Shown here one piece after another: positions 43,921 to 64,000 of a DNA stretch of 64,000 bases. The notes beneath the pieces are model-generated. The model had not been told where the DNA came from, did not search any database, and worked only from the letters and a program-made list of their open reading frames with translations. A program made the position numbers and the translations under genes. Within the stretch, counting starts at the first letter, position 1; the number at the start of each line of letters is the position of its first letter. Source of the stretch: Cirrosporium novae-zelandiae (lineage: Eukaryota); NCBI GenBank assembly GCA_026023565.1, contig JAPETS010000009.1:124001-188000 (forward strand). Reading direction: 5' to 3'.

Positions 43921-45920
43921 ATGGCCCCCGAACCATTGACGAAACGGTCATCCAGTAGAGCTTGGGAAGCTCTGACCCCACCACTATCAGAATGGATTCT
44001 TGATGCGACAGCCAGTATGGGCTTCGGTCGCATGACACCAGTACAGGCTTCCACAATCCCTCTATTCATGACGCACAAAGACGTGGTAGTTGAAGTAAGC
44101 ATATTATTCTTGGTGAACCAATCACGCAATCGGCGGCTAACAGCTCGTTCTTCAAGGCTGTTACTGGTAGCGGAAAGACCCTCGCTTTCCTGATACCTGT
44201 GGTGGAAAAGCTATTAAGGATTGAGGAACCGATCAAGAGGCATCATGTTGGCGCAATTATTGTTTCTCCCACGAGGGAATTGGCCACTCAGATATACAAT
44301 GTTCTTGTCTCATTACTTAAATTCCATGGTCCTTCTACGGCAGTTCTAAAACCTCCAGATGATGAAAGCCATGAGGGGCAGATGGACATTGATGGTGGCG
44401 CAAAGGAGGAGGAAACGCCCATATACCCCGCTTCTACTCTCAAGATTCTTCCCCAGCTTCTAGTTGGAGGCAAGACAGCAACCGTCTCTCAAGACCTGCA
44501 GCACTTTATGAAACATTCTCCAAACATCCTCATCGCAACGCCAGGACGACTTGTCGAGCTTCTCTCCTCTCCTCGCGTCCATACTCCACAATCCTCGTTC
44601 GAAATGCTCATTCTTGACGAGGCCGACCGACTGCTCTCTCTCGGGTTCCAACCCACTCTTCAAAAGATACTTTCTCTCCTCCCCAAACAACGACGAACTG
44701 GTCTCTTCAGCGCCAGTGTGTCCGAGGCCGTATCAAAACTCATCCTTGTCGGCCTTCGCAATCCCGTCAAAGTCTCTGTCAAAGTAAAATCCCAAGTCAC
44801 CGACCAAGACCTCCGGGTTCCAACTAGCCTCGAATTGACATATATGCTCACGCCTCCACGGCACAAACTGCCTGCCCTCAACCACATTCTCAACAATCTG
44901 TCTCCAACTCCACAAAAATCAATCATCTATGTCTCCACCTGTGCGACGGTCGACTACCTCTCAACCATACTCCCGATCCTGATTCCCAAATCCTTCACCC
45001 TCATTCCACTCCATGGAAAGCAACCACCACAAGTTCGCACTCGGCTCTTCAACCAATTTCTCGGAACCACCACGCCTTGTCTCCTCCTAACAACCGACCT
45101 CGCTGCCCGGGGCCTCGACATTCCCTCGGTGGATCTAACAATCCAACTTTCCCCCCCAAGCACCCCGTCGACCTATCTCCACCGCTCTGGCCGCGCGGGC
45201 CGTGCAGGGCGACCTGGTCTCTCCGTCCTCTTCCTAACCCCCGGTCGTGAAGAAGGCTACATTCCCTTCCTCGCCGTGCGCCACACACCCATCCATCCGC
45301 TCTCGCTTCCCAACCTTCCCGAATTCAACCCCACCCCTACCCAGATAACCACAACCGAAACCACAATCCGCACCCACCTCCTCACCGACCGAACCCTCCA
45401 CGACAAATCCCAACGCTCCTTTGTCTCCTACGCCCGCTTCTACAGCTCCCACGAAGCAAAATCCATCTTCCGAATCACCGACCTCAACTTCGAGGACCTA
45501 GGTCACGCGTGGGGTCTCCTTAAGCTTCCCAAAATGCCCGAACTCAAAGCCCATCCAGAAATAGATAAAACCCTAGGCCAAAAAGAGATCGACTGGAAAA
45601 ACTACACATACAAAGACAAGCAGCGCGAGAAACGACGACTAGAAAAACAAGAAGATGAATCCAACAAGCACGATGATGATGACACAACAGCGCCCCGAAA
45701 CGCAAACGCGGCCTGGAGCGCCCAGCACGCAGCGCACGCGAAGAGAAACAAGAGGAGGGAGCAGAGACATGTGCGGAGAGAGAAAGAGAGGAAAGCGAAA
45801 ATGACCGAGGAGGAGAGGGCGAGGGATGATGAGCTGGAGGATATGATTGAGGTTGTGAGGAAGGGGGTTAGGAGGCGCGAGGAGATGGAAGAGGAGGAGT
45901 GGGGGGGTTGTGAGGATTGA
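43921..45920 (+). CDS. SPB4: ATP-dependent rRNA DEAD-box helicase Spb4 (DDX55 orthologue); intron 44095-44156
   Basis: Q motif [16 protein letters not shown], then [14 protein letters not shown] across the intron, [47 protein letters not shown], and the Spb4-type C-terminal SFVSY...IFR...[12 protein letters not shown]. Confidence 0.95.
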
Positions 45921-51801: not shown

Positions 51802-53184
51802 TGTGATTGCCTTTTCGATCTTTAGTCAGAAGGTGGTTCAGGAAGGAACGAGAAGGTTGAAAATGTACAAGAAAGAGTTGGAGATGGATGAGGTGTTTCT
51901 GAGAAAACTAAAGGCAGGTACGAGTTGCATCGAAAAGATGCGATGAATGACGGGGATTTCGCTTACCTTAAACGCGATCGCGTCTATTTTACGCGACAAG
52001 CGAACGTCTTTGGCGAGGAACTTTATCTTGATATCACTTCGACTTTGGTACAGACAACTGCTTTGATTTTTGGTTGTTGATGTTTGAAATGGTTGAAGTT
52101 AACTTGTTGATATTCTTGTTAAGCTGACGTGAACACTTTGGGGTTGAGTTGCACTCTGGAGTGCTAAGCTAAGCTGTTCTTGTGCTTGAGACAAGTTTTC
52201 TTGAGATACTCAAGGTTGTTCAGATCGTCAACCTGGTCAAGAAGTGATTGTCTCTAAGAGAGCTAAGCTTGTTAAAAGGCTCAAGGTATGAGAAGTGTTC
52301 AGAGTCAGAGGTTAAGAAGTCAACGGGGTTGTGGTACATGAAATGTTGTAAAGGTTGAGAGTTGTAAAGGAAGAAGAGTTGAGAAGGAAGAGTTGTGGGA
52401 AATTTATAGTGGATATTTTGTTGTTGTTGCTATTGTTGTTGTTATTGTTGCTGTTATTGTTGTTGTTTTTATTGGTGCTGCCTAGATGTGGTGGTGCGAG
52501 GCAAAAAAAAAAGCGTCTCTAGTAGAGCTATGAACGGATATTGCCTTTTGAAAACAGTGGAGGACTATCCCATCACTCTCTGACTACTATGTTTTACCGC
52601 AAGAGACAACTAGCTTGGATATCTCCTCAAAGAGTGCGTTCGTCTTACTCACCCACGAGCCCTAGTTTGCGAGGAGATTTCTAACAGCTTATATACTAAG
52701 ATCAATTTCAGATCCTATTCTCCTTAAAGGTATCCCGGATACAGAATGGTTCGGTATATAATACGGCATAAACAGACTGGATATACTAGTAAAGGGAGCT
52801 GAAATATGTCAAGAGAGTAGATATTTATCCATTAGAAAAGTACCTAGGTATTTCATCATCTCACACGGTCCTACAACAGTACTAGAATTTAAAGTCACAG
52901 TATTCCTTAATTCACATAGAGGATAACCCAAGTGAAACTAGAAATTACCATACCAGTTTGAGAGATAAAAGCCAATAGCCTAGGATTGTAATACAGAAAG
53001 CCTAAGAACTAGAAATGATACATTCTTCAAGCCGTCAATAGCATCTAAGGGAAACATAGGTGTCAAATTTCAATCGGCCCGTAATAATTAAATAATATAG
53101 TTAAACACCAGTATCTACCAACAGCGAATCCGTAACTCTACAGAGATATCTACTTAGGCTTGACACAACTATCCATAAGTACAC

Positions 53185-55554
53185 TCAATATGCCTTCACA
53201 CCTTCCACTACACTCTTGGCCTCTGTGTCTTTTTCAACATCTCTATCCTTTTCGACGCCTTCGACGGTCTCCACTATCGTCCCGGCTCTGAGTTCTTCGC
53301 CCTTCTGTCCAGTGACAAATTTCATGAATGACAACAAGCTATCTTTACCTTGCCACAATGGCATGATCAAGATTGTCAAGCTAGCGACCCAGGCAAATAT
53401 GAATGTGAAAGCCACCCAGGCACGGAAGAAGGGCTTGCTGAATACATAAGATGATCCATACATGGGCATAGGGAATAGGATGACAAAGATAAGACAGAGG
53501 GCACTAACAGGTATGATTAGCTCTATAGGTTCCACGAAATTATCACAGACTCAAAACTCACATGGCTAGTGCAATTCCCCAATTTCTTGCTTTGTGCAAC
53601 GATCTCTCTTCTTCTGGACTCAAACTTTCCTTCTTCATTTGCTCGGCTAGCTGTTCCTGCGTTAATCCAGCAACATCGCTATCATCTATGACTTTGATCT
53701 CTGTCTGAAATCTCGACCAGTTGAAGTCATCGGGTCCAAATATGAAGGTGAGGAGTATAGAGTACACGGCACCAGAGACAAGAGATGTAGCATTGCCTAC
53801 AACGAGAGGAAGTGCGGTTGAGGTTGTAGCGATAGTCACAGAGCCTTCAAAGGCATACGCTGAGCCAAGCCAGGAGGATATTGCAGTAATGCTACCAAGG
53901 ACAGGGGCAATGCATATGGCCGCCTTGTTTTGACGTTTCCAAAGGATGGTACTATACATCGGCCAAACCATACTAGAAGTGAATATACTAAAATGACGCG
54001 TTAGAAATAGAACACCGCGATTTCGTCAGGGAACAAATCTTACCCCATACATGTCACAAGGTAGTTCACACCGATAGCATACTGCAGACCGGAAGCTATT
54101 CCTGCCATGAGAAGACTCCATATGATTACTGCCCAATGCGACATTTTCACTAGTCGACTGCCAGTAGCAGTAGGATTTATATATGTCCCATATATGTCGT
54201 AAGCGAAAACTGAAGCCACAGCTACCAGATCTGCAGAGAACCCAGATGTGCAGGCCATGAAAACCATCAACAAGATGAAGACAGCTCCACCATTACCCAT
54301 AAGAGCAGCCGCAACATAGGGAAGGGGGAGGCCTTGGTTAACCTCATCCGAAGTCATAAGTCGAGGCCACGTTGGGAATGCAGGGTTACTCTCCAGAGCT
54401 CGCGCCGCCAGGCCAAAGGTTGTTGCTAGGCAAAATGGGATGCTAAAAGTTGGATTAATTTCTATTCTTCCTGAAAAAACGGAGCGAGGGACTCAACGTG
54501 AACCATGCAAGACCTCCTATCATGTATCCCGGCAACGTACTAGATGGATTCGCAGCGATTGCCTGAAATTATTTCTAAGTATTGGCTTTTGAGAAAGAGT
54601 ATGAGCAACAGACCTTTTGATACAGCTGGAAATCGACCGTGGTACCGAATACTGCACACCAAAATATCACACCGAACAGGACAGCGTCAAGACTTCTCAT
54701 GGTAAGATATTCGCCACCCGCATTCCCAGAGACTGGAGCAGTCTGCGCGGCTTGTTTCAAAAGCTCCCACATAGCATCAGGAGAGCCAATCAGCGATGAA
54801 TGGGTATAGACAATGAAGAGCCCTGTAAGAACGAGCGCATAGACAATGACCGTGTGAACATAATCAGTTAAGAAGGTGGCCTTGATGCCACCAAATAAAG
54901 TATAAATTACCACACCAACAGGAAGAAGGAAACTTCCAAATCGTTAGCAAGTTTCTAGTCGCAAGGCCTCAAAGCTCACCATCCTGCAACTGGATGCATT
55001 CCCGTCAGAGCAGAGAATACTGCAGAACCCCCAACCAAGATGTTTACGCAATTGATAATCTGGTACATTGTGGAATAGATCATCTGAATCCAATGCCCAG
55101 TCTTTCCATATCGTATCTTTGATACTTCAAGGAAAGTATGAGCCCCTGGTGCCTTGCGTTTGAGCTCGATTGCGCTAACAGCAAAGACATATATCTGCAC
55201 AGATGCGCCTGCGCCGTAGAAATAAGCTCCAGAAATACCATATGAGTAAGTCCATGAAGTAGAAGTAAGCAAAGTCGCAGCAATTGTCCAGCCCGATACC
55301 ACAGCCGAAGCAACAAGTCCACTTTTGATAGAGTGTTTTGCTGTTGAAAACATCTCAGAGGTCTGAACCTCTTTATTGAACTTTCCAAGGACATATGATG
55401 CCCACCACATTCCGATTGCGAAAATTGCTCCAACTCCAATGAGAATTCCATAACCGACACCTAGAATATATCAGAATAAAGCTCAGATGTAATTCTGGGA
55501 GACGAGATCCTTGCCTTGGCCTAGCGGCGGTGCTACACTGGAGGTTGAAGACAT
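53185..55554 (-). CDS. Dur3/UreA-like sodium:solute symporter family transporter, a divergent paralogue; 6 introns, the first GC-AG (55514-55461)
   Basis: Spliced N-terminus MSSTSSVAPPLGQGVGYGILIGVG. Motifs: SEMFSTAKHSIKSGLVASAVVSGWT, IELKRKAPGAHTFLE, YTLFGGIKATFLTDYVHT, GNAGGEYLTMRS, KAIAANP..GYMIGGLAWF, YDIYGTYINPTATG, LFPMPMYGSSYVFSKPFFRAWV. Confidence 0.93.
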
Positions 55555-56594
55555 TGTACAAAAGACAAGAAAACAAATCTCCTATAGGGAACAGATAGAT
55601 GATAGTGCCGACAGACCCAGAAGAAGCGAGGTAGTGTACGGGAAGTGCAAATGGAATTAACGATAGGAAATATAGGAATAAAGGAATAGCAAGAGAACTG
55701 ATAAGACTTACCTTGCACCTATCAATTATGTGTAGGTGCCTCTTGCAGAGGCCATCTCCAAAGTATATTCCATCCTTATCAATATGAATATCGGCTATGC
55801 TGCATGATATCAACATTAGCTCACAAAGGACCCCTGACGATGAGCTTCTACTGCTTGAGACTTTCGTGTAATACAGTGGCTTGTTTCTCTCCTTACGGAT
55901 AACAGTATTTGGACTGTATACCTAAATAGGAAGAATCACGCCAGATGTGAGATGACATCAGTTAGATAGAAACACGCGAAGAACAGGTGTTTGAAAACAG
56001 CTCTAAAGAAAAGATAGCGATTGAATTTGGACATTTTGAATAATAATTATGGCTTGATACTGATTCCAACAAGGAAGCTGGTCTCGAAGAGACGCTTTCG
56101 GAGTTCTAGGTAAGAAGGTAAGATAATAATGTTGATCGGTCGGGGTTGACAGGTGGAAACCTAGATATCATCATACTAGAACATCATTGGAGATAATTTG
56201 ATATCAATACTGCTGCGATAACGGCTGATGGACTTGAAACATATAACCGCAGTCAGTTCACAATGGAAGTAAGGTTATCCTGGCTTGGCCCCACGAGCCA
56301 GCTTGAGTATATTGTGGTGAGTCGTGGTTGACCGATAACATCCAAATTAGGAAGCTGGCTTTATCTCCGACGAATTTAGGTGGGTTTAAATATTACGGAA
56401 TATGTCAACTAACAGCCATGTTCCACATGTTATCCATTTACCCCAGGGTTCCCACCTACATGCTTCCATATGAATTTAGGTTGTATTTAATACCTGCCGC
56501 AAATAGACGGCGCTTTCACTAAGGAAACTACTCATTCTTTAAATGACAAGGTAACAAGAGGTTTAATTGGAAGGTTAAACAATCTCCACAGAAT

Positions 56595-57621
56595 TTAAGC
56601 AAAGTACTTGGCGTTGAAAGCATCTACGACTTCTCTAGTAGCTTTGACAATATCCAAGCAGCCCGGAGAATCCGAATGACAGCAAATCGTCGTGGGATAA
56701 TCCTTCACCGGCAGTTGAACAATTTGTCCATCCACCGAAGTTACAGATTGAGTTTCAATCTGTTGTGAGACATGCTTCTTCACATCCTCGAGCACCCAAG
56801 GTTTCTTTTTCCGATCAATAATCAGCGTACCTTCATTTGTATATTTGACATCGCCGTAGAACTCTAAGCATTGACTGTCAGTAGTCAAAAGAAGTGAGAA
56901 TTCATATATACTTGCCTGCAAAGAACTTGATTCCAAGATTGTTGGCTGCTGTTTCCATGTTTGTTCCGGCAAGACCAAAAACAGGTACCCCCTTGGGAAT
57001 GCCACGCATAACAGCTTCTGCAACCTCATAGTCTCTGCACATCATTCCGTATAATATCCCTACAGTTGATTTAGCCACCCCTTCTGCCATTTGTAATATT
57101 TGCTTTAGCTACCATGAGGCTTGACATGATGCAATGGCATCCCTTCTTGATCGAGAAATCCTTTCAGAGCTCCAACTTGATAGATAGTGAGGGCCGTGAG
57201 TTCTTCCGGAGAGAGTTTCATCTCTTCTTGTTCATTAGGCAATTAGATATTAATAATGAAGAACTGACTTGCCTCTTCGTCCAAATCCATTCAAATCTGG
57301 TAAACCCGGATGGGCACCAACTTTGATATTGTGTTTTTTGCAATTGCGGACAGTTTCCATCATTATAAGGGGATCCCTGGTCATCGATGAGCCATTGCTC
57401 TAGACAATTAGCTAAGGGTAGAGCAAATCTCACGATGCATGAAAACCACAAGCGATATTTGCATAATCGATTAGAGGAATGAGCTCAAGATCAGGGCCAC
57501 AGACCCAGTTTCCATACTAGGAGGGAAATCGTCAGTTTCGGATCATTCATACAGGATTGAGTGCTCGTACCCCTTCTCCAAGGTCAACATTAATTAATGC
57601 CTTGTGTTGTATTGGACTCAT
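56595..57621 (-). CDS. lamB: LamB/YcsF family protein (5-oxoprolinase PxpA-like); 5 introns, two of them GC-AG
   Basis: Hand-spliced sequence: [120 protein letters not shown]...[11 protein letters not shown]...[10 protein letters not shown]. All LamB/YcsF signature blocks are present. The ORF track shows it only as fragments. Confidence 0.95.
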
Positions 57622-58132: not shown

Positions 58133-61100
58133 ATGGAAGCCATAAGAACTTTGTTGGTAGCAAATCGGGGAGAAATAGCTGTGAGAATTATTAAAACAGC
58201 CAAGTATGTTACTATTCTATAATACTGACGCATAGATCGCTTATTTCTTGCAATATAGGGCTCTAGGAATTCGAACAATTGCGATATATACAGAGGCAGA
58301 TGCAGCATCAACCCACGTTGCCTTGGCTGACGAAGCGGTTCTTTTGGCTGGCGAAAATGGGTCAGGATATATTGACGGGTTAGAGTCTTCAATTTCGTTG
58401 ATTATTATGTTATAATTTAGCCCCTAACAATTCATGTCCTCATTAGAGACCACATTGTCCAAATTGCGAAAAAATACGATGCCAATGCTGTGATCCCTGG
58501 CTATGGGTTTCTCTCAGAACATGCAGAATTCTCACAGGCTGTTCATGCTGCTGGTATGGTTTTTGTAGGGCCATCGGCAGAGAGCATTGAAGCCTTTGGA
58601 ATTAAACATACCGCAAGGGGACTGGCAGAGAAGGCCGGAGTGCCTGTTGTACCTGGCTCTGGACTCGTAAAAGACCAAGAAGAAGCGTTACGAATCTCAA
58701 ATGAACTTGGATTTCCGGTACAGCACTCTCTCATGATTTGGACTATAGGATACCCCTAGTTTAGTAACTAATGCATTTTGACTAGATCATCCTCAAAGCG
58801 ACCGCGGGGGGAGGTGGCATGGGTCTTATGCAGTGCTCTAATGAAGAGGAGGTCAAGAAGTCATTCGATATGGTCCAATCGCGAGGTACTACACTCTTCA
58901 AGAATGCTGGAGTATTCATTGAAAGGTTCTACCCTTCGAGCCATCATATTGAAGTTCAAGTATTCGGTAACGGACTCGGCAAAGCTATAAGCTTTGGAGA
59001 GAGAGAATGTTCCATACAAAGAAGGCATCAAAAAGTCATTGAAGAGTGTCCCAGCCCCTTTGTCACGAAACACCCAGGTAGGTATATTCAATTCAAGGCT
59101 TTGAACGTGTACTGATATTTTGGAAGAGCTTCGAGATAAATTGTGCTCCGCTGCAATCAAACTTGCCGAGTCTATCAAATATGGCTCAGCCGGAACCGTT
59201 GAATACCTTGTAGATGACGAATCAGGAGATTTTTTCTTTCTAGAGATGAATACGAGACTCCAGGTTGAACATGGCATCACCGAGCTCTGCTACAATGTTG
59301 ATATGGTAGAGCTCATGTTAAAGCAAGCTGATGCCCAGCTGCTTGGGAGGGGAGGCCTAGATTCAGCAAATCTAGAGGCCCTCATAACAACCAAACCTAA
59401 TGGCTTCGCTATAGAGGCCAGGCTATACGCTGAAAACCCTGCCAAGAACTATGCACCATCTCCAGGAACCTTAGCGCTAGTCAAGTGGCAGGAAACAGAT
59501 GGTTCAAGGATTGATACGTGGGTGCATACAGGCTCACAAATCACATCATATTATGATCCTCTATTGGCTAAAGTCATGTTCCACTCAAAGACCTCCCGCC
59601 AAGATGCGATATGTGGAATGCTTGAGGTGCTCAAAGGATCTGAAGTGTGTGGGCCACCTACTAATCTTGATTTCCTAGCTTCAATCCTCCAAACCCCCGA
59701 ATTCATGTCTGGGAAAACGCTTACAAAGTTCCTTTCATCTTTCAAATATTCACCATCAGCTATTGATGTCCTCGCTGGGGGAGCATTGACACAAATCCAA
59801 GACTGGCCAGGGAGGCCGACGTTAGGGAAAGGATTTCCTCACTCTGGCCCCATGGACCCCCTCGCTTTTCGCATTGCTAATTTGCTCGTTGGAAACCCAA
59901 TGGGTATGGAGGCATTGGAAATAACACTAAATGGTCCCGACTTGGTTTTCTTGGGTCCCGCTATCATATCTTTATGTGGCGCACCTATGGAAGCCGAATT
60001 AGATGCAAACCCCTTTAAAATGTGGACTAGAACTAAGGTTGAAGCTGGGCAGAGGCTGAAGATTGGGAAAACCATAGGAGGGGGATGCCGAGCTTATTTG
60101 GCGATATATGGCGGGTTTCCTGGCATAGCGAGTTGGTTTGGCTCCAAGTCGACAAGCACAATGGTAGGCGTAGGAGGCCTCCAAGGTCGAGCTCTTGCAA
60201 CAGGTGACCTTCTAACCATAACTCAAGATCTTCCCAAAGATGTTGGAGATGCCAGCCTTCCCGAGAATCTTATACCAGAATATCCAAATCATTGGGAAAT
60301 TCTAGCAATGTCTGGACCTTACGATGATGACTTCTTAACGACTGAAGATGTCCAGGCTATTTTCAACAACACTTGGACAATTAGTCATAATGCTGCTCGC
60401 GGTGGAATTCGACTCCTAGGTGACATCAAACCAAAGTGGGCTCGTTCAGACGGGGGTGAGGGTGGAGCACATCCCAGTAATGTACCAGAGTATGGCTATT
60501 CAATTGGAGCTCTCAACTGGACCGGAGATGACCCCGTTATCTTTCCCGTCGACTGTCCTGATTTTGGAGGGTTTGTCTCTTGCCCTACTATAGTTAAGGG
60601 TGAATTTTGGAGACTTGGGCAGGTAAAGGCCGGGGACACGCTCAAATATAGAGAAGTTTCTTTAGCCGATGCCCTAGTAGTAAGAGCCACTGTGGAAAAG
60701 TATATTGATGGAGTCGCCAAATGTTGCTTGCGAAATACCGGCTGGAATGAGGTCTTAAGACTCGATTATAACGAATTGATATCTTCGACTTCTTCAAAAG
60801 GTGCTAAGAAAGGAGTTATCCGGAAGCTTGAAGCTACAGAGGCTAGGCCTGTAGTGTCATATCGGCAGGTCAGTAGTTCCCCGTTCTCAAACTTTTACCA
60901 ACCAGAGTGCTGACATCTAGTTAAGGGCGGGGATGACTTTCTCCAGGTGGAGTACGGTGTGGGAATGTTCGACCTAAATCATACATGCAGAGCCACAGCA
61001 CTCAACAAAACGCTCAAAGAATCAAAAGGCCCTATATCATTCTCTACCGGGATTACTAACACCGTTGTTTGTGGCAATTCCATAACGTTCCACTATGATG

Positions 61101-62203
61101 GCACCAAGATCCCCCAAGCAACACTTTTAGAGGAACTATGTAAGTTGGAGGATGTACTCGGTGATCTTCATAGTATAAAATTCCCAAGCCGTCTTTTCCG
61201 TCTCCCTTTGACTCTTGAAAGCTGGCGCCAGACGGCTGCAATCCAAAGATATATGGAGACTCAGAGACCTTATGCAAGTTATTTACCAGATAACATGGAC
61301 TTTGTTGCCAAGAATAACGGATTTACCCGCCAAGATCTGGAGAAGATATATTTCGAGCAGCGATTCATTACTATAGCCGTAGGTTTCTTTTGTGCGCTCC
61401 CGCTCTGTCTATCAGTGGATCCAAGATTCCGGTTGAACTGTCCGAAGATGAACCCCTCAAGAGTATGGACTCCTAGTGGCCAGTGGAGCTGGGGTGGATC
61501 ATGCGGTGCTCTGTACAATGTCGAGTCTCCCGGGGGCTATCAACTTACCGGACTTACAATTCCAAGTGTTGACATTCTAGGCTATAAAAAGGGTTACTCA
61601 CCTGATCGCCCTTGGTTATTTGAGGACTTTGACCAGTTGTCCTTCTACCCTGTTAGTGAAGAGGAATATGAAAGACAGCGCGCCCTATTCTATAGCGGAC
61701 GCTATGAATATGACTGGAAGCCTGTCATGTTTGACATGAAAGAGCATAACAAACTCCTGAAGGAGACCCGGGCCGAGGTGGAAGAGACCCGGAAACGCCA
61801 AAGGCTCGCACAAGAAGAAATGGACAAACTAGAAAAGGAGATGCTTGAGAAATGGAATCAAGAAAAAGCCAAAGATGAAATACCTATGGATGAAGTCGAA
61901 GCGCTGTTGAACGGTAAATGCGTCCTCATAATCGCAATGCTTCATCCTACTAACTCTTGCACAGATCCCGCCATCGCCAAAATCGAAAGCCCCCTAAACG
62001 CGAACGTATGGAAAGTCATGGTTGAAGAAGGCCATACTCTTGAAGCCGATGAAACAGTGGTGATCCTAGAAGCTATGAAATTAGAGATTTCCGTTCGCGC
62101 GGATGCGGGCCTCGCAGGTGCCAAGGTGGAGAAGCTCTTGGTCAGACCTAATGATGTAGTGAAGGGAGGAGGCTCGTTGTTACTTGTAAGGAAAAAAGGG
62201 TAG
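58133..62203 (+). CDS. lamA: Biotin-dependent urea-carboxylase-like protein (LamA-like): biotin carboxylase, AHS2/PxpC-like, AHS1/PxpB-like and biotinyl domains; no amidase domain; 6 introns
   Basis: BC domain: LLVANRGEIAVR, PGYGFLSE, GGGGMG, ERECSIQRRHQKVIEE, FLEMNTRLQVEHG, EARLYAE, YYDPLLAK. CT domain: TQIQDWPGR...GPMD, LEITLNGP, GSKST, PKMNPSR, SPGGYQ. Biotin site: EAMKLE. The last intron, 61914-61964, is in frame. The symbol is inferred from the head-to-head layout with lamB. Confidence 0.92.
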
Positions 62204-62632: not shown

Positions 62633-63916
62633 CTAATCCTCATCCCTTTCGACCTTTGCTGGAATGGGTTTATTTGCCAAAGGAGTCAAGCGGAAACCAT
62701 GTCTCCTATCGCCAACAGGATAATCAAGTGTTTGTGAATGGTGCACAATTCTTTGATCCCAGACTAGGACAGTACCAGCCTCGTACCTGACTCGACAAGA
62801 GAAGTCCTGGCCTCGCGCAATATGATCAAACAGGAATTTCAGAAGATAGTCTGACTCCTCTTGGTCGAAGCCGACTATCCTTTTGGTGTATACCGGATTG
62901 ACATCTATATTTTAATGAGCAATATTGACAAGATATTGAACAAAGAGACTTACAAAGTGCCTTTTCGCGAGTGACTGGATGGACAATCACGACAGGATGT
63001 TCTGCTTTACAAATTCCACGTCGCATAACAGCCTTCTCGCCATGTTTCAACTCCGTGCGCACGCCATCATCGTTATTGTGAATAGCAGTTAAACCCTCCA
63101 GCCGCTTCCGAAACCTAGGTGAGAGACGACTGAATGCTCGGACGCTTGAACTGACCAGAGTATCCCCACCAGCAGATGAAGGTGACTCGAGCATGCAGAT
63201 GAATGTTGTCCCTGGAGGCTGCTGCTCGGCGCTTTGATCAGAATGCCATTGAACGGGGCTTCTGCCCGCCCATTGCTTACGTACACGGAGATCACTAGCG
63301 ATGAACATTTAGCAAAGCGGACAATCCGTATTATCGAGGGACTCATACTCCTTGTGGTCATATATAATCATGTGTTCCTCTGATCCAGCCACTGGGTGAG
63401 GAGCCCAGCTTCATGTTGTCAGCTTGAGTCTTCTAACACTCTAAAGATTCTACCCACCCATGTATGTGCAATGGACCGAAATGTCTGACAATGTTTTTCT
63501 GCGCTTCCATTCCAATGTTTGCGAAATCTTGATCACGGAAAACTAGCGCTCCCCGTTTAGCAGTTAGCAAAGCGAGCTCGTCCAATCCAGCACTGTCAAG
63601 CTGGGATAGTTGTACACCATGGATCTCTGTCCCAACATGGGGCGATAGATCCCACATCTTGGTCATGGTCTTTAACAAGGTCGGCAGTTTTGGATCAGCT
63701 CGATGTCCTGGATCATGGTGCTCAAAGGGGCCGATATCCTCTACTTTCTCAAGAGGGTCGTAAAACGCTATCCAGGAGCTTAGCAAACTTGTTCCGAATC
63801 ATGGAATCACACCTACGCATGTAGTCTGGGTATAGAGGAGACCCATCGTCATTTTTTGGGCGGACAACTTTTACGTGCTGAGGCACATTGGCCGTGGTAG
63901 TCGTAGCGATCGGCAT
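62633..63916 (-). CDS. TauD/TfdA-family Fe(II)/2-oxoglutarate dioxygenase (Jlp1-like); 3 introns
   Basis: Motifs: DPGHRADP, LSPHVGTEIHGVQLSQL, LVFRDQD, WHSDQS (HxD), GGDTL, HPVVIVHPVTREKAL|YVNP, ES..LLKFLFDHI, VWDQRIVHH (distal His), RRHGFR. ATG at 63916, TAG at 62635-62633. Confidence 0.93.
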
Positions 63917-64000
63917 TGGAAATATCAGATATGAAGGAACTCAATAATTTCTAAGAGATGCAATAATCCTAATACTTTTCTATAAAAATTACATTGACGC

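Follow-up and report, generated by a model that had tools for sequence, protein, structure and literature searches.

A probable lamA-type gene of Cirrosporium novae-zelandiae encodes a urea-carboxylase-like protein that lacks the active-site aspartate and lies divergently from a lamB-like gene

Introduction

What would a protein built like a urea carboxylase act upon, if its carboxyltransferase (CT) site had the lysine of those enzymes and lacked their aspartate? This question is raised by one gene in a 64,000-nucleotide stretch of the genome of the ascomycete Cirrosporium novae-zelandiae (GenBank assembly GCA_026023565.1, contig JAPETS010000009.1, positions 124,001 to 188,000 of the forward strand), which is called the window below and in whose own numbering all positions are given. 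A sequence-only reading of this DNA had described the CT site of the gene as devoid of the urea-carboxylase aspartate and similar to that of PxpB, and had proposed a different substrate or chemistry. The comparisons reported here indicate that the gene is, on balance, of the fungal lamA type, with a biotin carboxylase (BC), a four-subdomain CT-like module and a biotin carrier in one chain, and divergent from lamB; a lamA/lamB locus, which the sequence-only reading had not recognised, would explain a site that is urea-carboxylase-like and yet has no aspartate. That the enzyme is of the lamA type and has a substrate other than urea seems to us quite likely.

Several systems are relevant to this identification. 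In Aspergillus nidulans, lamA and lamB are genes of lactam catabolism under the control of AmdR (PMC8016842), and ycsF is related to lamB, which is needed for the use of 2-pyrrolidinone (PMC3412718). In Pseudomonas putida, a pxpABC paralogue is the butyrolactam hydrolase, as judged from fitness data and a deletion (bioRxiv 10.1101/2021.12.09.472016). The opening of 5-oxoproline has an unfavourable equilibrium, and in the ATP-dependent PxpABC the PxpBC proteins are assumed to be the lactam activators and PxpA the opener (PMC13274462). Finally, a stand-alone mycobacterial PxpB/C pair binds the biotin of a biotin carboxyl carrier protein (BCCP), without having key urea-carboxylase residues or urea carboxylase activity (PMC13012033).

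Results

The carboxyltransferase site

Over the site region, phmmer matched the window protein to the PDB chains 3va7_A and 5i8i_A of the Kluyveromyces lactis urea carboxylase (E 7e-42 and 1e-41, respectively), setting the K. lactis stretch 'lglgDvflgspcavpldprhrylgtKynpsr' opposite 'iavg-ffcalplclsvdprfrlncpKmnpsr'. By counting residues along the 5i8i chain we found that the gapped aspartate is number 1584 and the lysine number 1605, just as the sequence-only reading had given them. Its two central observations, the absence of the aspartate (VG-FF) and the retention of the lysine as an AAG codon (K1006), were borne out when the protein was aligned with the K. lactis enzyme and with PxpB. The gap at the Asp1584 column recurred in three separate MAFFT alignments, and the DPR...K.NPSR frame as well as the Tyr1628 position were kept in the window protein. 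As to the limits of the site peptide (FITIAVGFFCALPLCLSVDPRFRLNCPKMNPSR), the end given earlier was right, but the start, placed at about 61363, was one base off and in the wrong frame, the true start being 61364.

Two segments further upstream, SNVPE and PVDCPDFGGF, had also been set opposite urea-carboxylase motifs, and phmmer placed them in the same way, SNVPE with SNAHD and DCPDFGGF with DGPSLGGF (Table 1). The supposed likeness to PxpB stood only in part: the GF of the site aligned with the GF of PH0987, KipI and two bacterial PxpB proteins, but the lysine and the DPR...K.NPSR frame occur here where PxpB has an arginine.

A catalytic role was reportedly ascribed to Asp1584 by Fan and colleagues in 2012. 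Lys1605 is the likely general base, and the K1605A change cripples the K. lactis enzyme (PMC5770610).

Of 120 close homologues, 118 had a readable site, the other two falling outside the site pattern. None of the 118 had the aspartate (116 read GFF, one GFY and one GFL), nor did any of the 102 full-length sequences of the lamA clade or of the 90 full-length sequences of a second fungal subfamily, both scored by pattern. This second Asp-less subfamily (query P0133) is likewise annotated as urea carboxylase. A three-group CT alignment was then built with MAFFT, consisting of the lamA clade (the window and the first 60 of the 102 sequences, 61 rows), the first 60 of the 90 sequences of the second subfamily, and a canonical group of 24 rows made up of representatives and bacterial open reading frames (ORFs). 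The Asp1584 column was a gap in all 121 Asp-less fungal rows and an aspartate in all 24 canonical rows. Because neither the 118 readable close homologues nor the 121 aligned fungal rows have the aspartate, its lack, as judged across these sequences, is neither a matter of chance nor an assembly error, but a trait of the family that is not confined to this organism. The Lys1605 column held lysine in 145/145 rows of this alignment and in 62 of 65 rows of a second sample, which comprised 64 representatives and the window. The last position of SNVPE was glutamate in 61/61 lamA-clade rows, whereas it was aspartate in 24/24 canonical rows.

The representatives had been taken from the best 150 of the 1225 matches (E <= 1e-3) that exon 6 gave as query against the protein library. 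Among these best 150 matches, 88 rows covered the site (87 representatives and the window, four fragmentary rows being left out), 51 of them with GLG[DE] and 37, including the window, without it.

Five members of the second Asp-less subfamily (P0321, P0322, P0339, P0289 and P0303) are listed with extra methyltransferase domains or with the fungal transcription factor domain PF04082, which may represent true fusions, or else gene models that have been merged.

The partner gene

The gene is paired with a divergently transcribed gene of the LamB_YcsF/PxpA family. Five ORF pieces of this neighbour each matched Pfam PF03746, jointly covering profile positions 11-238 of 239, and tblastn with the LamB protein P0490 (253 aa) covered residues 1-251 at the same locus. 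The database proteins closest to it, which bear the name 'Lactam utilization protein lamB', were 65-77% identical over the last exon. The divergent lamA-lamB pair was present in 17/17 related metagenome loci, which fall into about six distinct types of sequence with 58-70% identity to the window, and at least eight pairs of lamB-named and lamA-like database proteins came from the same species and from contigs equal in length, a Pyrenula pair among them bearing the locus tags 001841 and 001843.

The two families also met within single proteins. LamB_YcsF was fused at the N-terminus in both Asp-less long forms (P0136 and P0347), followed in P0136 by the BC, CT and BCCP domains, whereas the Asp-bearing long forms had an amidase/allophanate hydrolase in 5/8 cases and LamB in 0/8. 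As a bacterial control, 29 loci were scanned; all 27 readable sites were GLGDVY, no LamB match lay near any of the 29 loci, and DUF1989 and/or allophanate hydrolase stood beside the gene in 6/8 sampled loci. Neither allophanate hydrolase nor DUF1989 was found beside the lamA-like gene in the window, where the neighbours are LamB_YcsF and TauD. The partner gene thus tracks the state of the site, LamB going with the Asp-less forms and allophanate hydrolase or DUF1989 with the Asp-bearing ones, and such a setting speaks for some other substrate than urea, in line with the earlier proposal of a different substrate or chemistry. Strictly speaking, the gene probably does not encode a urea carboxylase, and would belong instead to the Asp-less, LamB-partnered branch.

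Covariation with the Ser1345 position

At about two dozen positions of the CT alignment, the lamA clade had one fixed residue and the canonical enzymes another. The most striking of these positions was that of Ser1345, which was serine in 24/24 canonical rows and aspartate in 60/61 rows of the lamA clade and 53/60 rows of the second subfamily; its standing as a canonical hallmark derives from the present alignment and not from the literature. In the 65-row sample, all 33 rows with Asp1584 had serine at 1345, and the rows without it had Asp (16), Thr (6), Asn (3), Gly (2), Ser (2) or a gap (1). The residue of the window protein at this position is D730.

These counts bear on the possibility that the protein still is a carboxylase of urea, or of another small amide or guanidine, in which the acid has moved from Asp1584 in the C/D loop to D730 in the A/B loop. 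A move of this kind would fit the strict association of Asp1584 with Ser1345 in the representative and canonical rows, the joint occurrence of a gap at 1584 and an aspartate at 1345 in 16/30 Asp-less representatives and 113/121 fungal rows, the retention of Lys1605, the Tyr1628 position and the DPR...NPSR frame, and the database names, which are those of urea carboxylases. Bacterial urea carboxylase is also said, in work of Kanamori in 2004, to take acetamide and formamide. Nevertheless, around half of the Asp-less representatives, LamB-fused forms included, have Thr, Asn, Gly or Ser instead of Asp, the partner is LamB and not allophanate hydrolase or DUF1989, and the A. nidulans lamA gene is tied genetically to the use of lactams and not of urea. 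We consider a urea or amide carboxylase with a relocated acid quite unlikely, and favour an enzyme of the lamA type with a substrate other than urea.

Origin of the aspartate

Two bacterial PxpB sequences of the stand-alone kind served to root a tree of 89 rows, from which P0229, with its long branch, and the four fragmentary rows were excluded. The Asp-bearing rows formed one nested clade of 53 rows with a Shimodaira-Hasegawa-like approximate likelihood ratio (SH-aLRT) support of 98, in which P0241 (Glu) and P0267 (Gly) were secondary exceptions. The sister of this clade, with a support of 87, consisted of two Asp-less proteins fused to LamB, and both outgroup rows were also gapped at the Asp1584 column. 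Since the clade with the aspartate lies nested within forms that have none, and the PxpB outgroup is gapped, the aspartate appears to have been gained in the canonical clade: Asp1584 is probably a derived insertion that marks the urea/guanidine carboxylases, and not something lost from the lamA-like gene. The earlier statement that the aspartate is missing therefore stands as to its absence, but not as to a loss, for it was probably never gained. The Asp-less, LamB-partnered branch would then probably be the ancestral one in the family.

P0136 and P0144, which are Asp-less and have threonine at the Ser1345 position, took the place of sister group to the canonical clade in this tree.

Gene model and domains

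The ORFs of the window are split by short GT..AG introns, a gene structure of the fungal type, and the positions of the lamA-like gene, its exons, its domains and the residues discussed above are given in Table 1. Pfam found the domains Biotin_carb_N, CPSase_L_D2, Biotin_carb_C, CT_A_B, CT_C_D and Biotin_lipoyl, in this order, and no amidase domain in the 1240-aa product. By phmmer, CT_A_B matched 3va7/5i8i (1e-72) and YbgK (5dud_A, 2e-31), and CT_C_D matched 3va7 (7e-42), PH0987 (1e-6) and KipI (3e-5). GGGGMG, E.N.R.QVEH and further BC motifs were present. The BC motifs and the EAMK biotin site, which had been called intact from the start, occurred in the window protein and in 74-75 of the 75 full-length orthologues.

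P0002, labelled Cirrosporium novae-zelandiae, is the database model of the same protein, 100% identical over exon 6 and 1257 aa long. Its sole difference from our model is 17 extra residues, read through the in-frame 51-nt stretch 61914-61964 (GTAAAT...CACAG) and located just before the BCCP domain. Since the consensus of the orthologues shows nothing inserted at this place, an intron has probably been kept in the database model.

Table 1. Positions of the lamA-like gene, its domains and site residues, and the lamB-like gene in the window
Feature	Position	Strand	Details
lamA-like gene	58133-62203	+	7 exons, 1240 aa + stop; GT..AG introns of 49-68 nt; frame open after joining
lamA-like exons	58133-58203, 58259-58378, 58447-58717, 58786-59077, 59127-60868, 60926-61913, 61965-62203	+	
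Biotin carboxylase part, residues 1 to ~455	58133-59737	+	4 introns inside; Pfam; motifs; many biotin carboxylase structures matched (phmmer)
CT_A_B subdomains (PxpC-like), residues 487-760	59831-60652	+	Pfam PF02626, E 2.8e-80
SNVPE, opposite K. lactis SNAHD	60476-60490	+	His1320-Asp1321 replaced by Pro-Glu
PVDCPDFGGF	60545-60574	+	DCPDFGGF opposite DGPSLGGF
D730, at the Ser1345 position	60560-60562	+	GPSLGGF to CPDFGGF; candidate relocated acid
CT_C_D subdomains (PxpB-like), residues 834-1043	60929-61558	+	Pfam PF02682, E 3.5e-19
Site peptide, residues 979-1011	61364-61462	+	
G985-F986	61382-61387	+	1-residue gap for K. lactis Asp1584 between these codons; phmmer, MAFFT
K1006 (AAG)	61445-61447	+	K. 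lactis Lys1605 equivalent; phmmer alignment
BCCP domain	61965-62200	+	Pfam Biotin_lipoyl; EAMK from residue 1197; biotinyl-lysine K1200 codon 62078-62080
lamB-like gene (LamB_YcsF/PxpA family)	56595-57621	-	~6 exons, approximate model; ATG at 57621
Shared region between the divergent start codons	57622-58132		511 bp; lamB ATG 57621 (-), lamA ATG 58133 (+)

Surroundings of the pair

The lamA-like gene has as its tail-to-tail neighbour a gene of the TauD/TfdA dioxygenase family (62633-63940, minus strand), which is made up of three or more exon pieces, and pieces of a sodium:solute symporter (SSF) gene (about 53100-55900, minus strand) lie just past the 3' end of the lamB-like gene. The SSF family includes fungal urea transporters. 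Both genes were considered as parts of a lam system and dropped, as they were beside the pair in none of the 17 related loci. An ORF at 44094-45917 (plus strand), with DEAD, Helicase_C and SPB4-type C-terminal domains, corresponds to an rRNA helicase and is unrelated to the lam pair.

Among the lamB-lamA intergenic regions of the relatives, two 8-mers, the GATA-type TGATAAGG and CCCCGCAT, were common to five of the six sequence types (L001, L002, L005, L013, L015 and L016). The latter is presumably a GC-box of the CreA type. Neither was found in the 511-bp region of the window itself, and an HGATAR promoter signal was rejected since its frequency in the window was at chance level (219 against 212 expected).

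A complex prediction for the CT part of an Aspergillus LamA (P0012, residues 456-1128) with its cognate LamB (P0490), run without alignments or controls, gave no verdict (score 0.00) and does not bear on binding in either direction.

Discussion

The architecture of the protein, its site and its pairing with LamB together suggest a possible route, which we put forward tentatively: the N-carboxylation of a lactam followed by ring opening by LamB. The BC domain would first form carboxybiotin from ATP and bicarbonate. The CT-like module, with Lys1006 as the base and with a pocket made less polar by VG-FF and devoid of the urea-binding aspartate, would then carboxylate a lactam, for instance 2-pyrrolidinone, at its ring nitrogen. 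The activated N-carboxy-lactam would be opened by LamB, and the resulting carbamate would lose CO2 to give an omega-amino acid, gamma-aminobutyric acid (GABA). ATP hydrolysis would in this way drive a ring opening that is otherwise unfavourable, as urea amidolyase does for urea. More generally, LamA and LamB could form a biotin-dependent lactamase with carboxybiotin as a transient activating group, the Asp-less, LamB-linked branch being the older one and the urea/guanidine carboxylases having arisen from it by an aspartate insertion paired with Ser1345; this whole reading seems to us plausible, although somewhat short of probable.

The homology of the CT-like domain to both PxpC and PxpB, together with a partner that is PxpA-like, invites another view of the chemistry, in which the module would phosphorylate the lactam with ATP before LamB opens it and the BC and BCCP domains would be regulatory or serve another step. 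The division of labour assumed for PxpABC (PMC13274462) would agree with it, and so would the handling of butyrolactam by the biotin-free pxpABC paralogue of P. putida. Against this, 74-75/75 orthologues retain the BC motifs together with that of the biotinyl-lysine, suggesting selection for real carboxybiotin chemistry, and at the position of the PxpB arginine the protein retains the lysine that acts as the base when the carboxyl group is transferred. We also know of no separate ATP site in the CT fold. A phosphorylating module is, in our opinion, rather unlikely.

It could also be asked whether the protein has any catalytic function, given that the mycobacterial pair MSMEG_0435-0436 sequesters the biotin of another carboxylase: that PxpB/C homologue, which does not have the urea-carboxylase residues, was shown to bind biotinyl-BCCP and to make the other carboxylase less active (PMC13012033). 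The lamA-like protein, however, has its own BC and BCCP domains in cis with conserved catalytic motifs, its hydrolase partner LamB is conserved, and its namesakes in A. nidulans are catabolic genes. A regulatory biotin binder is hardly credible in these circumstances, and N-carboxylation followed by LamB remains the route that we prefer.

Several points weigh against our own proposal. The literature searched yielded no enzyme assay of any LamA protein, and for that reason we infer the substrate and the chemistry. The likeness to the A. nidulans lamA gene is one of arrangement, of names and of orthologues from many Aspergillus species. The 17 loci with the divergent pair are closely related assemblies and not 17 independent lineages, and no Asp-less form was seen among the 27 readable bacterial sites, the scan with a single peptide pattern being a weak one. 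The outgroup of the tree consists of just two PxpB sequences on very long branches, and because of this the polarity of the aspartate gain is probable and not certain. It may be that D730 gives the pocket an acid again, and the argument for a different substrate would then be weaker. Bacterial PxpABC opens lactams without biotin, so that homology does not compel a role for carboxybiotin.

The Asp1584/Ser1345 pair and the partner gene cleanly separated the lamA-like proteins from the true urea/guanidine carboxylases in our sample, and databases list hundreds of fungal proteins of the lamA-like type under the name 'urea carboxylase' or 'urea amidolyase'. If our reading is true, the residue pair would offer a simple sequence test for their re-annotation. 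Full-text searches, which covered few subscription papers, found neither a biochemical characterisation of LamA nor a description of a biotin-dependent lactamase; they did not find the Asp1584/Ser1345 signature used as a discriminator either, although Fan 2012 and Niehaus 2017 were outside their coverage and may discuss it. Should lactam opening driven by ATP and biotin be true, the chemical role of the long-known lam genes would be settled, and a new type of reaction would be added to those of biotin enzymes, with a second 'amidolyase' logic beside that of urea amidolyase. It would also have a bearing on the mode of action of oxoprolinases of the PxpABC type and of the mycobacterial PxpB/C homologues that bind biotin.

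Comparison with known systems

The closest parallel is the lam locus of A. nidulans, a type of locus that is already known genetically and of which the pair in the window adds another instance. It has reportedly been known since 1989-1992, from the work of Katz and Hynes in 1989 and of Richardson and colleagues in 1992, the latter being said to describe lamA and lamB as divergently transcribed and lamA as resembling urea amidolyase. Here too, a urea-carboxylase-like gene with BC, CT and BCCP domains is divergent from a LamB_YcsF gene, many Aspergillus orthologues are 63-67% identical to it over the exon-6 part of the CT domain, and the closest relatives of its neighbour bear the name lamB; the source organism, however, is a different ascomycete.

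With the K. lactis urea carboxylase/urea amidolyase (3VA7, 5I8I) the window protein shares the domain order, phmmer matches of 2e-121 over the C-terminal part of BC together with CT_A_B and of 7e-42 over CT_C_D, Lys1605, the Tyr1628 position and the DPR...K.NPSR frame. It differs from that enzyme in having no Asp1584, an aspartate for Ser1345 and Pro-Glu for His1320-Asp1321, in about 20 other positions at which the clades have switched, and in having LamB as its partner instead of a fused or adjacent allophanate hydrolase.

The mycobacterial MSMEG_0435-0436 proteins (3MML, 9YX5) gave weak phmmer matches to the window protein and are, like its CT module, PxpB/C homologues without key urea-carboxylase residues. 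Both bind or carry BCCP biotin, the mycobacterial pair binding that of a BCCP domain, but the latter is stand-alone and acts in trans on another carboxylase, and its accessible description reports no link to LamB (PMC13012033).

Finally, PxpABC (KipI/KipA/YcsF; YbgJ/YbgK) and its paralogue in P. putida have in common with the window pair a CT module homologous to PxpC and PxpB, a GF without the aspartate and a partner of the PxpA family. To our knowledge PxpABC does not need biotin. Unlike these separate small subunits, the window protein fuses the PxpC-like and PxpB-like parts with BC and BCCP in one chain of 1240 aa, and at the Lys1605 position it has lysine where PH0987, KipI and the two bacterial PxpB proteins have arginine. 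The likely class of substrate would be the same in both systems, namely a gamma-lactam.

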